A stretch of 64,000 nucleotides of DNA from Campylobacterales bacterium. GTDB taxonomy: Bacteria > Campylobacterota > Campylobacteria > Campylobacterales > QNZT01. Position 1 is the first letter of the stretch. Each line of letters opens with the position of its first letter. Made by a program: the position numbers and the translations under genes. Of the stretch, positions 395 to 4,571 are shown in pieces. Location: positions 27,836-91,835 of the forward strand of contig JALVVR010000017.1 of the NCBI GenBank assembly GCA_027023305.1, written 5' to 3'. The notes beneath the pieces were generated by a model that saw only the letters and a program-made list of their open reading frames with translations, was not told where the DNA came from and did not search any database.

Positions 395-1688
395 ATGAAA
401 GTGATTTTCAAAAAAACTCGTTGGGGGGGGGGATTTTTCTAAAGTAAATCTTTCTCTTTTAACTTTATTTGCAATATTTACTATAGGTTGCGGTGGAGGA
501 GGTGGTGGTTCAACTCCTTCATCTTTAACTCCTACTACTATAACTGCTGTCGATGGTTATATCGTTGGAGCATCTCTAAAAGACTCAAAAGGAGTAAGTG
601 CCACTGAGGTAGGAAGTGGAAAGTATAAGTTTTCTGATACTCCATCATATCCACTTACACTAACTGGTGGAAAATACAGTGCAACTGGAAAAAACTTTGA
701 TATAAACTTGAGTTCTACTAGTGGAGGGGTTATATCTCCTATAACTACCTTTTTAGCAGATGACTCTGCACTTTTAGCTAAGTTTGCAAGTGCAAATCTA
801 GGTGCTACTACTCTATCTCAGTTTGGAACTGACTACATAGATACAAATAACTCAAAACTAGCTAAACTATCACAACTTCTATATGTCATGTTAAAAGACT
901 CGACATTAACGACTACTTTTAAAACTAGCCTTGGTGGTGCAAATCCTGCTTCATTAGATGAGTTATTTACCCTCGCCGAAAGTGATGTAAATGCTTCAGC
1001 AACACTGGACTTTAAACAAAAACACTTTGCTCGTAAACTTTTAACTTTCACAAAAAACTTTACAAAAGAGCCTAGTGAGTTAGAATCAAACCTAAAAAAC
1101 TTAAAAGCAAATCTAAATGGAGACTATAGTGACCATGCAAGAGTAGTTCTAAAAACAGGACAAACAAAAAGCTACGACAAAGATGGAAATGAAGTAACGG
1201 ATGGCTCTATAAAAGATGATGGTTTTTATCAAAAAGGTACAGCAAGAGCTTACACAAGAGCAAACGATATAGTAACTGACAATGTTACTCATCTTATGTG
1301 GCAAGATGATAATGAAGCAAATACTATACAAAAACAGTGGCTTACAGATGAAAACTACAACACTTGCTCAAACGATACAAACTCTTCTGCTTGTACTGAC
1401 ACTAGTGGAGATACAGCAGTAACTTATTGTGAAAACTTGAACTTAAGAGGTTACACAGATTGGCGACTTCCAACTGTAGAAGAGTTGGTTTCTATAACTG
1501 ATAATGGTAGAAGTGCTCCTGCAATAGATCCGATTTTTTAAAATGTAGTCTCTAACCGTTACTGATCTTCTACTTCTCTCGCTTCCTCTCCAGATGGTGC
1601 TTGGGGTGTCTACTTCAACGGTGGCGGTGACGATTGGTACCTTAAGGACAATAGTTGGTATGTACGATGTGTTAGAGCCGGTAATTAG
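395..1688 (+). pseudogene. DUF1566 (Lcl C-terminal / C-type-lectin-fold) lipoprotein gene carrying three lesions: an out-of-phase G10 tract and two in-frame nonsense codons
   Basis: AAGGAA SD precedes ATG 395. The frame stops at 440-442 after the G10 tract; with G9 it would read MKVIFKKTRWGGDFSKVNLSLLTLFAIFTIGCGGGGGGS (lipobox TIGC) into the 708-1541 frame. TAA at 1539-1541 and TGA at 1563-1565 interrupt an otherwise open frame ending at TAG 1686-1688. The tail YVRCVRAG matches the paralog at 2347-2769. Confidence 0.75.
423..432 (+). repeat. Homopolymeric G10 tract inside the signal-peptide coding region; candidate phase-variation switch
   Basis: Ten consecutive G counted at 423-432, 28 nt after ATG 395. 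Tract length sets the reading frame of the lipoprotein gene. Confidence 0.9.
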
Positions 1689-1864
1689 TGAAAAGTGAAG
1701 AGTGATGAGTGAAAAATTATTTGGTAGGAGGTAGTTTTATTTCATTTTGAAATATTTTTTGGTGTAGAGAAGCTTTTTTGATAAAATCTTTTTAGTGAAT
1801 AGTGAATAGTGAATAGTGAATAGTTAAGGATTATTTTTCACTTTTCACTTTTAGTTTTTCACTA
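1687..1864. repeat. AGTGAA/TTCACT palindromic intergenic element, copy 1 (includes an AGTGAAT x4 tandem at 1794-1821)
   Basis: AGTGAA-type arms at 1687-1716 and 1794-1824, and complementary TTTTCACTTTTCACTTTTAGTTTTTCACT at 1835-1863, followed by an A-run, GGGGAG and ATG 1886. Confidence 0.8.
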
Positions 1865-1885
1865 AAAAAAAAGGGGAGCTTTTTT

Positions 1886-2239
1886 ATGCCGAGTATTTTA
1901 AAACAAAAGAGTTACAAGTTTTCTTTGAGGGTTGTGAAGCTTTATAACTATCTTTGTAAAAGTCAAAAGGAGTATGGTTTAAGTAAACAACTTTTAAGAA
2001 GTGGCACAGTTATAGGTGCTTTGGTTGCAGAGGCAGAGTTTGCCCAATCCAGAGCTGATTTTGCAAATAAACTGAGTATTTCACTAAAAGAAGCAAACGA
2101 GACTAAGTACTGGTTGATGCTTCTAAAAGACTCAGAGTATTTGCAAGACAAGATGTTTGAAAGTATAAAACCTGATGTAGAAGAGATTATCAGACTTTTA
2201 GTATCAAGCATAAAAACAACGAAAAAAGTGAAAAACTAA
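1886..2239 (+). CDS. Four-helix-bundle protein (23S rRNA intervening-sequence protein family, the family that includes DGR Avd)
   Basis: 117 aa. Motifs QLLRSGTVIGALVAEAE and LKEANETKYWLMLL are typical of the family. GGGGAG SD lies 7 nt upstream. Confidence 0.85.
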   Translation: MPSILKQKSYKFSLRVVKLYNYLCKSQKEYGLSKQLLRSGTVIGALVAEAEFAQSRADFANKLSISLKEANETKYWLMLLKDSEYLQDKMFESIKPDVEEIIRLLVSSIKTTKKVKN

Positions 2240-2329
2240 TAGTGATGAGTGAAAAGTGAAAAGTTAAATGAAAAGCACTCGCAGAGTGCATACAAAAACT
2301 CTTCACTCTTCACTATTAACTTTTCACTA
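2227..2329. repeat. AGTGAA/TTCACT palindromic intergenic element, copy 2
   Basis: AGTGAAAAACTAATAGTGATGAGTGAAAAGTGAAAAGTTAA ... CTCTTCACTCTTCACTATTAACTTTTCACTA. An inner GCACTC/GAGTGC hairpin sits in the loop. It starts inside the last codons of the upstream gene. Confidence 0.8.
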
Positions 2330-2346
2330 AAAAAAGGGAGAATTTC

Positions 2347-2769
2347 ATGAAAAAAACAATATTAAGCTTATTTGTTGTGATTGGTCTGCTTCAAGCTGAC
2401 TATATTCGAGATGATAGTAAAGGAGTTGTAGTTGATACTAGTACAAATCTTATGTGGCAAGATGATGTACCAAGTGTTCAAAAAACTTGGATAGAGGCTA
2501 TAAACTACTGTGAAAATCTAACTTTAGCTAGCTATGATGATTGGAGACTTCCAAATTTTAATGAACTATATATGTTAGCTGATAGAAGTAGAAGCAATCC
2601 TGCTATAAGTTCTGTTTTTCAAAATGTAGTCTCTAGCCTTTACTGGTCTTCTACTTCTTTCGCTTTCGTTCCAGACTCTGCTTGGGGTGTCGGCTTCTAC
2701 GGTGGCTATGACGGTTGGGGCGGTAAGGACGGTAGCGGTTATGTACGGTGTGTTAGAGCCGGACAGTGA
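2347..2769 (+). CDS. Small secreted DUF1566 (Lcl C-terminal domain) protein
   Basis: 140 aa. Signal peptide MKKTILSLFVVIGLLQA. Motifs LMWQDD, YCENL, DDWRLPN, YWSST, AWGV and YVRCVRAG. GGGAG SD. Confidence 0.85.
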   Translation: MKKTILSLFVVIGLLQADYIRDDSKGVVVDTSTNLMWQDDVPSVQKTWIEAINYCENLTLASYDDWRLPNFNELYMLADRSRSNPAISSVFQNVVSSLYWSSTSFAFVPDSAWGVGFYGGYDGWGGKDGSGYVRCVRAGQ

Positions 2770-2776
2770 GCTTTTT

Positions 2777-2923
2777 AGTGAATAGTGAAGAATCAAAAGT
2801 GAAAAGTGGAGTTTGATTTTTTGATTTTTGAACTTGAGAGTTGTGAACTGCTTTTTGATAGTGAATAGTGAAGAACTAAAAGTTAATGGTAATTTTTCAC
2901 TTTTCACTCTTAGTTTTTCACTA
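2777..2923. repeat. AGTGAA/TTCACT palindromic intergenic element, copy 3
   Basis: TAGTGAATAGTGAAGAATCAAAAGTGAAAAGTGG ... GATAGTGAATAGTGAAGAACTAAAAGTTAATGG ... AATTTTTCACTTTTCACTCTTAGTTTTTCACTA. Collinear with copy 1. Confidence 0.8.
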
Positions 2924-2931
2924 TAAAAAAA

Positions 2932-3141
2932 TCATGCCCACTCGAGTTTTGGCTCAGTATGTTTAGAAGCACAATCAGTTAGATATGAGTTGATTAGATT
3001 TTGATAGGGTATCCCAACTTTTGTAGATAATCTTTTAAAATACTCAATAGTCTCAACTTCTATTTTGATTGAGATTTGCTTTTTCACTTTTTTAGCATAT
3101 GGATTTTTTGTAGAATTACTAAAGTCATATTCTTTTCTCAT
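2932..3141 (-). CDS. brnA: BrnA-type antitoxin (CopG/RHH-like)
   Basis: 69 aa. Overlaps the upstream toxin gene by 4 nt. The toxin-first order is typical of brnTA. Pattern KKQISIKIEVETIEYFKRLSTKVGIPYQNLINSYL. Confidence 0.8.
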   Translation of the reverse strand: MRKEYDFSNSTKNPYAKKVKKQISIKIEVETIEYFKRLSTKVGIPYQNLINSYLTDCASKHTEPKLEWA

Positions 3142-3431
3142 GATAAAAACTCCTTGTATTGTTTTTCTTCTTTTTTTGTTGATTTTCTAGCACTTATGAT
3201 TCTGATGTTATTCTCACAATCCTTATAACAATGAACAACTGTCAAAATCTTTAGTTTATGACTCATACCAAGAAGAAGAAATCTCTCCTCATCATCACTA
3301 TGGTCTGGATCAAAAATCAATCTTGCATTTTCATCACCAAAAACACTTTTTGCTTCTTCAAATGAGACCTTATGCTTTGCAAGATTTTTTAGTGCTTTAG
3401 TATCATCCCAACTAAATTTTATATTTTCCAT
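3138..3431 (-). CDS. brnT: BrnT-type toxin (DUF497)
   Basis: 97 aa. FSWDDTKALKNLAKHKVSFEEA ... RFLLLG ... RIISARKSTKKE is typical of DUF497. Confidence 0.85.
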   Translation of the reverse strand: MENIKFSWDDTKALKNLAKHKVSFEEAKSVFGDENARLIFDPDHSDDEERFLLLGMSHKLKILTVVHCYKDCENNIRIISARKSTKKEEKQYKEFLS

Positions 3432-3437
3432 AATGAT

Positions 3438-3466
3438 ATTATAATGTTTTTATAATGTTTTGTCAA
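3438..3466 (-). promoter_or_regulatory. Consensus sigma70-type promoter for brnTA, probably giving a leaderless mRNA
   Basis: The minus strand reads TTGACA-17 nt-TATAAT-atcatt-ATG. There is no SD. The spacer contains ACATTATAA twice with an 11-nt period. Confidence 0.6.
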
Positions 3467-3473
3467 GCCTATG

Positions 3474-3533
3474 AAAAGTGAAAAACTAAAAGTCAAGAAT
3501 AATTTTTCACTTTTAACTCTTAGTTCTTCACTA
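3474..3533. repeat. AGTGAA/TTCACT palindromic intergenic element, copy 4 (short form)
   Basis: AAAAGTGAAAAACTAAAAGTCAAGAATAATTTTTCACTTTTAACTCTTAGTTCTTCACTA. Confidence 0.75.
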
Positions 3534-3585
3534 TTATACTATCCTTTAATAAAGGATAAAAATCATAAAAAAACTCCAAAATCTA

Positions 3586-3669: not shown

Positions 3670-3984
3670 ATGGAAAAAATCAGACTTAAGCTTAAAGCTT
3701 ATGATCATAGAGTTTTAGACAGATCTGTTGCAGCTATCGTTGATGCTGTTAAGAGAACTGGTGCTGAGATTAGAGGACCAATCCCTCTACCTACAAAAAT
3801 CAAAAAATACACAGTATTAAGATCACCACATGTTAACAAAGATAGTCGTGAGCAGTTTGAGATGAGAATGCACTCTCGTCTTATAGATGTTGTTTCTGCA
3901 ACAGGTGATACTGTAGATTCATTGATGAAACTTGACATAGCTCCAGAGGTTAATGTTGAAGTTAGAGCAATGGGTCAAAGTTAA
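3670..3984 (+). CDS. rpsJ: 30S ribosomal protein S10
   Basis: Sequence recognised ([14 protein letters not shown]...). First gene of the S10 operon. Confidence 0.97.
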
Positions 3985-3995
3985 GGGGAGACGAT

Positions 3996-4571
3996 ATGGA
4001 ATACATAGTAGAAAAAATCGGAATGAGTAGAACTATCACAGTACCAAGCACATCAGTTACACTTTTAAAAGTTGTAGATGCAAAAGTTTGTGAAGTTACA
4101 GAGCATGGTGCAATCGTAGCTTACCCAAAAGGTAAAAAGTTTGATAAAGCTATAGAGGGACAACAAAAAAAATACTCTCTAAGCAAAGAGTTTAATAGAT
4201 TTGTAACACTTAAACTAAAAGATGTTGAGGCTGGTGATTTAGACAAATCTCCACTAGGTGATGCAACTGTTGTAAAATCTTCTTTTAACACAAAAGGTAG
4301 AGGTTTTGCAGGTGTTATGAAAAGACATAACTTCGCTGGAGGTCCAGGAAGTCATGGTTCAAGATTTCACAGAAGAGTAGGTTCTATCGGAAATGCAGAA
4401 TGGCCTGGTCGTGTTCAAAAAGGTAGAAAGATGCCAGGACACTATGGAAATACAAAAGTAACAGTTAAAAATGAAATAGTTTCATTTGATAGTGAAACAG
4501 GAATCCTAGCTGTTAAAGGATCAATTCCAGGAGCAAATGGTGCTTATGGAAAAGTAAGGATAGTTAAATGA
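3996..4571 (+). CDS. rplC: 50S ribosomal protein L3
   Basis: Sequence and operon position. Confidence 0.97.

Follow-up and report, generated by a model that had tools for sequence, protein, structure and literature searches.

Two described diversity-generating retroelements (DGRs) come closest to the locus analysed here, which lies in a 64-kb window (the whole stretch of DNA analysed, part of a 154-kb contig of a Campylobacterales bacterium) and consists of two DUF1566 genes with hypervariable 3′ ends, separated by a gene for a four-helix-bundle protein. In the DGR of Bordetella phage BPP-1 (mtd-avd-TR-brt), as in the element described below, information passes one way from a template repeat (TR) to a variable repeat (VR) at the 3′ end of the target gene, and mutagenesis is specific for adenines. 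The four-helix-bundle accessory protein of the phage element has its counterpart in bAvd (PF22296), which is encoded in relatives of the window. The two systems differ in target class, which is Mtd in BPP-1 and DUF1566 here, and in location, the window element being chromosomal and not phage-borne. Moreover, no pair of initiation of mutagenic homology sites (IMH and IMH*) can be defined in the window, where the local core is deleted.

In the Legionella pneumophila DGR of the LdtA type (PMC5758913) and in the window alike, the VR (~137-148 nt in the window) forms the C-terminal portion of a DUF1566/Lcl_C domain and ends at the stop codon. The window targets are a lipoprotein and a short protein made up of DUF1566 alone; TR adenines are the sites of substitution, mostly in AAY codons, and the full layout of target, Avd, TR and reverse transcriptase (RT) is found in relatives of the window. 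DUF1566 targets ('CLec2', category d) account for ~14% of the catalogued DGRs and include short DUF1566-only proteins as well as lipoproteins such as Legionella LdtA (PMC5758913). An earlier note on this DNA had named DUF1566 as a family of DGR targets, in agreement with this documented class, and both target genes of the window match Lcl_C/DUF1566 (PF07603), a profile match from which the fold of this class is predicted. The window differs from the LdtA type in having no RT, TR or bAvd and in that one target is a pseudogene; the cassette of this clade differs in having two flanking targets, the small one of which overlaps the 3′ end of the RT gene. The mechanism, that of DUF1566-target DGRs, is already known. 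What sets the locus apart is that RT, TR and bAvd have been lost and that the RT was lost to a hairpin-bounded PF05635 cassette, which is met repeatedly in DGR loci of the clade.

A third comparison concerns the gene between the two targets, which encodes a clear member of the 23S rRNA intervening-sequence proteins (IVP; PF05635, structure 2RLD) and lies between long inverted repeats. Open reading frames (ORFs) within rRNA intervening sequences also sit between inverted repeats. The window gene differs from these in that it is located not in an rRNA gene but in a DGR cassette, at a position that varies among the relatives.

The two hypervariable blocks of the window are VRs, and thus products, of a DGR: the sites that vary in them match the adenines of a TR recovered independently. 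The 64 kb contain no RT, TR or bAvd. The complete reading, namely that the blocks are DGR VRs, that the core (RT, bAvd and TR) was lost at the locus and that the VRs in this genome are now static, is given a probability of about 0.72. The window was compared with contigs of relatives, designated by L-numbers. These include L007 (the same locus in another strain), L027 (a related strain, 952 bp, ENA ERZ27262679), L001 (Logan assembly SRR18691003, a contig of 1123 nt), L019 (a Campylobacterales metagenome-assembled genome) and L028 (7156 bp); three close variants, L007, L002 (ENA ERZ27262687) and L008, were compared as DNA.

The blocks at 1536-1679 and 2617-2760, which belong to VR1 and VR2, respectively, align without gaps and differ at 27 of 144 nt, with 11, 11 and 5 differences at codon positions 1, 2 and 3. 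At 10 of these sites an A is present in one copy or the other, and the framework stretches AATGTAGTCTCT, TCTTCTACTTCT, GCTTGGGGTGTC and TGTGTTAGAGCC are identical in both. The 135 nt located 5′ of the blocks contain 58 differences (21/14/23 by codon position), corresponding to an identity of 57% versus 81% in the block (Fisher p = 1.5e-5), and the break in identity between the paralogues is sharp, at ~1530/2611. This recount agrees with the figures given in the earlier note, with its four shared stretches and with its statement that the paralogues diverge in the ordinary way upstream, with many synonymous changes. According to the Nei-Gojobori method, pS was 0.11 and pN 0.20 in the block, and pS was 0.72 and pN 0.35 in the upstream region. 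The dN/dS comparison that the note had proposed therefore shows pN above pS in the block and the reverse upstream, while the codon-position bias by itself was not significant against the upstream region (p = 0.08). A third copy of the repeat was not found in the 64 kb, either by patterns with up to 3 mismatches or by blastn with a word size of 7. VR2 as the TR of VR1 was rejected, since VR2 has A at only one differing site.

The protein encoded by the intact second target gene has 531 homologues in the protein collection, with lengths of 127-220 aa among the 120 listed. In the 40 closest homologues the N-terminal two thirds are conserved; variation in the C-terminal 45 residues recurs at the same codons, where N, Y, D, S, G and H are frequent.

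For the recovery of the template, exact-pattern scans derived from the two window VRs only gave no matches in genome_contigs and metagenome_contigs, not even the window VRs, and the GGT fixed in these patterns is AAT in the TR; a pattern scan of viral_contigs also gave no matches. A search pattern derived from the invariant bases of five VRs (strain variants) led to canonical DGRs in relatives. Additionally, a peptide was devised as a pseudo-TR, with N for each variable codon, and its search against the protein collection led to short ORFs called over TRs; a TR-like sequence of this framework reads AATGTAGTCTCTAACAATTACTGGTCTTCTACTTCAATCGCTTCCAAC.... The best match of this peptide, P0241, is located on L027, where a VR end, bAvd, the TR and its flank follow one another and the TR has the same framework as the window VRs. 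The third copy with A at the variable sites for which the earlier note had proposed a search thus exists in a sister strain, and none is present in the window.

Compared with the L027 TR, VR2 differs at 28 of 48 adenine sites and at 3 of 89 other sites, VR1 at 21/48 and 6/89, and the VR of L007 at 15/48 and 2/89. The 26 differences between VR1 and VR2 in the TR-homologous core fall on L027 TR adenines in 21 cases, with adenines at 48 of the 137 sites (p = 1.4e-7). As controls, VR and TR were compared within the cassettes of L011, L019, L028 and L029, and 16-24 adenine differences versus 3-6 others were obtained. These results support the proposal of the earlier note that two VRs underwent adenine-targeted mutagenesis. 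By the known mechanism, the RT would copy the TR RNA with misincorporation opposite adenines, and the resulting cDNA would replace the VRs; the copies would then have their framework in common and differ in randomised AAY-type codons. Three changes at non-adenine sites are private to VR1, among them the TGA stop at 1563-1565, and, because of its two in-frame stops, copy 1 includes ordinary decay mutations.

The canonical layout in related Campylobacterota, labelled Sulfurimonas, Sulfurovum and Arcobacteraceae in match lists and locus titles, consists of a large DUF1566 target (VR), bAvd, the TR, the RT and a small secreted DUF1566 target (VR). L011 contains a VR, bAvd, a TR full of AAC/AAT codons, a 366-aa RT and a small DUF1566 target; L019 a 1166-aa target, bAvd, TR, RT and a second target; and L029 a partial target 1, bAvd, TR, RT and a small target. 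An RT was also found in L032 and in L008, where the RT ORF lies directly 5′ of, and overlaps, a target 2 that is 77% identical to that of the window. Other contigs carry the IVP cassette at varying places. L028 has target 1, bAvd, TR, AGTGAA repeats, IVP, a hairpin and finally the peptide MSLEEIKEFLSVQASFVGHCSHADSY, an RT C-terminal remnant with 85% identity to residues 323-348 of the L029 RT (E = 6e-12). L030 shows the order target 1, IVP, target 2, with a 24-codon bAvd remnant followed by the IVP cassette, which stands in place of the remaining bAvd, the TR and the RT. L032, L033 and L034, from three samples, have the IVP cassette in place of bAvd and the TR 5′ end together with an intact 367-aa RT, and both VRs of this cassette type differ from the TR at adenines only (16 and 12 differences, 0 at other sites). 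L002 has the same synteny as the window, i.e. IVP, small target and S10 operon. Two contigs of this family bear unexpected host labels: L025, an AAC-rich TR-like repeat on a 1.9-kb contig binned as Woesearchaeota archaeon, and L022, two VRs on a contig titled 'Helicobacter pylori PMSS1'. Both look like binning or naming problems, not real hosts.

No RT was detected in the window by tblastn with the L011 and L019 RTs (best E = 1.3), and a scan for the motif Y[AVILMCT]DD yielded no RT-like ORF; bAvd and TR were not found in the 64 kb by tblastn with two bAvds and by blastn. The statement of the earlier note that neither RT nor TR is visible in the window was therefore correct for these 64 kb, to which all the negative results apply. 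RT and TR were likely deleted from the locus rather than being located just beyond the window edge. Positions 1541-1870, which comprise block 1 and the following 190 nt, are 87% identical over 330 nt to L027 623-952, i.e. to the TR and its 3′ flank, and the sequence 5′ of block 1 is DUF1566 coding sequence. Most VRs of the family end with ...GGACAGTRA and the TRs with ...GGAGAGTRA or, in L027, with ...GATAATTAG. Because block 1 is VR-like in its 5′ side and body but has the 3′ end and flank of a TR, bAvd and TR were probably lost by recombination between VR1 and the TR. The whole flank 3′ of block 1 had been considered as the left arm of the IVP cassette; this was revised, since its AGTGAA stretch is the native TR-RT spacer in L032/L033. 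On the other side of the cassette, the bases that match 2330-2346 (~17 nt) lie within the 3′ end of the L008 RT ORF overlapping the start of target 2. In relatives the PF05635 cassette is located between TR and RT remnants and, because the L028 cassette precedes an RT C-terminal remnant, the cassette sits where most of the RT gene was.

The order of events at the locus would then be as follows. First, the IVP cassette would have taken the place of almost the entire RT ORF. Recombination between VR1 and TR as direct repeats would subsequently have deleted bAvd and the TR, with the old TR-RT spacer now located 3′ of VR1. Finally, target 1 would have decayed, by two nonsense codons and a frameshifting G run, and target 2 would have stayed intact. 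With one G removed from the 10-G tract of target 1, a lipoprotein-type N-terminus is restored, MKVIFKKTRWGGDFSKVNLSLLTLFAIFTIGC. The tract lies in the signal-peptide region. It could be a slipped-strand phase-variation switch set to 'off', a frameshift that arose by decay or a homopolymer error of the assembly. The features of the locus are listed in Table 1.

Table 1. Features of the DGR-derived locus and its neighbourhood (positions in the window; H, hairpin).
Feature	Position	Strand	Evidence or remark
Target gene 1, DUF1566/Lcl_C lipoprotein, pseudogene	395..1688	+	Pfam Lcl_C on the 708-1541 ORF
Run of 10 G, by which the ATG at 395 is put out of the target 1 reading frame	423..432	+	translation; a run of 9 G would join the ATG to the 405-1541 frame
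Nonsense TAA, immediately 5′ of the repeat core; the paralogue has CAA	1539..1541	+	alignment
VR1 (block 1)	1541..1688	+	diversified VR; last bases and 3′ flank are those of the L027 TR
Nonsense TGA, where all other VRs and the L027 TR have TGG	1563..1565	+	core position 25, non-adenine site
Former TR-RT spacer, AGTGAAN heptamer repeats and AGGAGG ribosome-binding site	1682..1738	+	aligns with the L027 post-TR spacer and the L032/L033 TR-RT spacer
Possible degenerate RT 5′ end	1739..1788	+	ATT TCA TTT TGA AAT ATT ... versus ATG TTx xCA TTT CAA AAT ...
Hairpin H2, left boundary of the IVP cassette	1789..1868	+	inverted repeat I10; RNA fold -26.9 kcal/mol, z = -5.3
Four-helix-bundle gene, PF05635 family, 117 aa	1886..2239	+	PF05635 96.5 bits (cut-off 33.8), profile positions 6-105 of 106
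Hairpin H3, right boundary of the IVP cassette, inner GCACTCGCAGAGTGC stem	2227..2333	+	inverted repeat I8; fold -37.2 kcal/mol, z = -8.1
3′-terminal bases of the former RT coding sequence, which now form the target 2 ribosome-binding region	2330..2346	+	L008 homology begins at 2330
Target gene 2, intact 140-aa secreted DUF1566/Lcl_C protein	2347..2769	+	Pfam Lcl_C (PF07603) 104 bits
VR2 (block 2)	2622..2769	+	adenine-site differences versus the L027 TR
Hairpins H4, 3′ of VR2	2772..2924	+	2856-2928: -20.8 kcal/mol, z = -4.2
BrnA/CopG antitoxin (2932-3141) and BrnT toxin (3138-3431), between two hairpins	2932..3431	-	Pfam matches
Hairpin H5, last before the S10 ribosomal-protein operon	3472..3535	+	inverted repeat and fold

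Several observations weigh against this reconstruction. The TR of the adenine test was taken from another strain, L027, and not from the genome of the window. The VR1-TR deletion is derived from one short contig (L027, 952 bp), and the crossover would have to fall at the extreme 3′ end of the repeat. The RT 5′ remnant is weak, its local score being equalled by 4-7% of shuffles. Finally, the window, L007 and L002 have the RT-less arrangement in common, yet their VR2 differences are found mostly at TR adenines (25 of 28 between the window and L007). One way to read these differences is as diversification after the local RT loss, in which case the VRs would not be frozen and an RT and TR would possibly be present elsewhere in the genome.

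This last point leads to the alternative that survives best, although we regard it as unlikely: an RT and a TR of the same framework at another place in the genome still diversify VR2 in trans. DGRs whose targets are remote from the RT have been described. The strain comparison that the earlier note had suggested does show variation at TR adenines. Between the window and L007, the IVP-target 2 spacer, the target 2 5′ part (275 nt) and the 3′ flank are each ~96% identical and the VR core is 79.6% identical; the corresponding values versus L002 are 97.5% for the target 2 5′ part and 75.4% for the VR core. The pN/pS ratio between the window and L007 is ~1.7 in the VR and 0.2 in the target 2 5′ part. 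Synonymous divergence from L002 in the target 2 5′ part (2347-2621 versus 576-850) amounts to a pS of 0.018, compared with 0.13 in rpsJ and 0.23 in rplC in the neighbouring region (3670-4568 versus 1716-2614), which suggests that the body of the target gene was recently recombined or transferred; the VRs thus differ despite the very recent shared ancestry of the rest of the gene. Diversification in trans would also agree with an intact target 2 whose VR is nearly unchanged at non-adenine sites, and RT-intact cassettes with a similar AGTGAA-type TR-RT spacer exist in the same sample series (L032-L034).

Against a remote RT stand the lack of RT and TR in the 64 kb and the apparent deletion of the genome's own TR. 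At L027 717 (TR position 95) the TR has GGG, and the other VRs compared have TGG (W), except L002 with GAG; the change from TGG to GGG was copied to no VR and fits a TR that is no longer copied. VR1 carries its private non-adenine changes and stops, and L001, an independent short-read assembly, is identical to the window over 1123 nt, VR2 included. Moreover, because the locus is a recombination mosaic between strains (IVP 89-92% identical, target 2 5′ part 96-97.5%), the same pattern could arise when recombination shuffles old VR alleles or spreads an RT-less allele. We still infer that the VRs of the window's genome are static and that the present variation is probably a frozen record. The small-target VR of L002 has an unusual 3′ end (~960-1030), which reads ...GAGACGATAAATAG followed by AGTGAA repeats, like the TR 3′ end of L027 (...GAGACGATAATTAG and AGTGAA), and thereby differs from the usual VR end ...GGACAGTGA. 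This suggests a TR to VR transfer past the normal 3′ boundary.

The product of the gene at 1886-2239 has PDB 2RLD as closest solved structure (E = 5e-36) and 1445 homologues with up to 90% identity. It was not matched by the bAvd profile (PF22296) at E ≤ 0.01, nor by tblastn of the L011 and L019 Avds; the accessory proteins of L011 and L019 match PF22296 with 29.6 and 39.9 bits, both under the Pfam cut-off of 40 bits. Judged by these profiles, the window gene is not the Avd typical of this DGR clade. The earlier note had assigned it to the four-helix-bundle family that includes Avd; the fold family stands, as PF05635, and the part of this element's Avd is not supported, in view of the missing PF22296 match and of the RT position that its cassette occupies. 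The cassette, ~545 bp long, lies between long imperfect hairpins of AGTGAAN repeats, hairpins bound it in every DGR-locus case examined, and the inner stem of H3 is also present 3′ of the IVP gene in L028. In Hydrogenimonas urashimensis, a homologue with 67% identity is located by itself, flanked by tpiA and a dehydrogenase gene, with no DGR nearby. By its arrangement, the cassette looks like an inserted or mobile one.

A broader and rather doubtful proposal is that the PF05635 cassette is a mobile Avd-related module that repeatedly enters DGR loci, that the RT-less loci diversify in trans and that the cassette is perhaps even moved by DGRs. Its positions are indeed varied: the Avd position in L032-L034, the RT position in L028, L027/L002 and the window, and a replacement of Avd, TR and RT together in L030.

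Also improbable is a functional role of the gene at this locus, in which the PF05635 protein acts as an Avd equivalent and target 1, IVP and target 2 form a satellite module served by an RT elsewhere. PF05635 is reported to be the commonest Pfam family beside DGR RTs and is treated as Avd-like in that context (PMC10053308). Because of this, and because the Avd position of the RT-intact, bAvd-free cassettes of L032-L034 is taken by P0124, a homologue with 76% identity, an Avd-like activity of the protein is possible. The adenine-only VR-TR differences of those cassettes and the recurrence of the order target 1, IVP, target 2 in L030 agree with such a role, but the exclusive restriction to adenines in L032 may date from before the insertion. 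The cassette stands beside an intact bAvd in L028, between TR and RT remnant, and it truncates bAvd after codon 24 in L030 and the TR 5′ end in L032; together with the hairpin boundaries and the stand-alone homologue in Hydrogenimonas, these are marks of an inserted or mobile cassette. Recent gene conversion of one paralogue's 3′ end followed by positive selection on ligand-contacting codons, with no retroelement at all, would explain the sharp identity break, as from a conversion tract, and pN > pS in the block, but it is effectively refuted by the match of the variable sites to the adenines of the recovered TR, by the variation of the same codons across the 40 closest of 531 family members and by the full RT, bAvd and TR cassettes that flank homologous genes in relatives.

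The hairpins extend beyond the cassette. The motif AGTGAANAGTGAA has 19 matches in the 64 kb, all within 1685-3535 (1.9 kb), with ~1 expected by chance. These matches form imperfect hairpins of 65-110 nt (fold z -3 to -8) between every gene of this region in an array-like, cassette-style layout, and those 3′ of VR2 also flank unrelated genes. In L002, three copies (~1001-1071, 1196-1267 and 1510-1582) lie between the small DUF1566 target and the S10 operon. An Rfam search of the hairpins gave only sub-threshold, hairpin-shaped chance matches to miRNA families. Integron attC sites were considered and set aside, as no convincing core-site motifs were seen by eye; an integrase was not searched for. 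The L001 contig corresponds to window 1799-2921 and breaks exactly inside H2 and H4, which shows that the hairpin repeats fragment assemblies around the locus. The BrnT/BrnA segment is absent from the syntenic contig L002 and lies between two hairpins, and for these reasons the pair looks like an inserted cassette. Toxin-antitoxin genes also adjoin other DUF1566/DGR loci, namely L005 (PemK), L006 (Phd/ParE) and L028 (BrnT/CopG).

The locus shows that a pair of hypervariable DUF1566 tails can be traced to a DGR even with no RT or TR in the vicinity, by recovery of the template from related strains. The reconstructed history would describe a route of DGR decay, in which a small hairpin-bounded four-helix-bundle cassette replaces the RT and recombination between VR and TR then removes Avd and TR. 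The recurrent PF05635 cassettes in DGR loci bear on the role of this very widespread protein family and, if DGR machinery should move the cassette, would provide a link between DGRs and the unexplained mobility of 23S rRNA intervening sequences. Should the VRs be live, the locus would offer a clear example from nature of DGR diversification in trans; if they are frozen, the organism has one fixed variant of a secreted ligand-binding protein and no diversifying repertoire.

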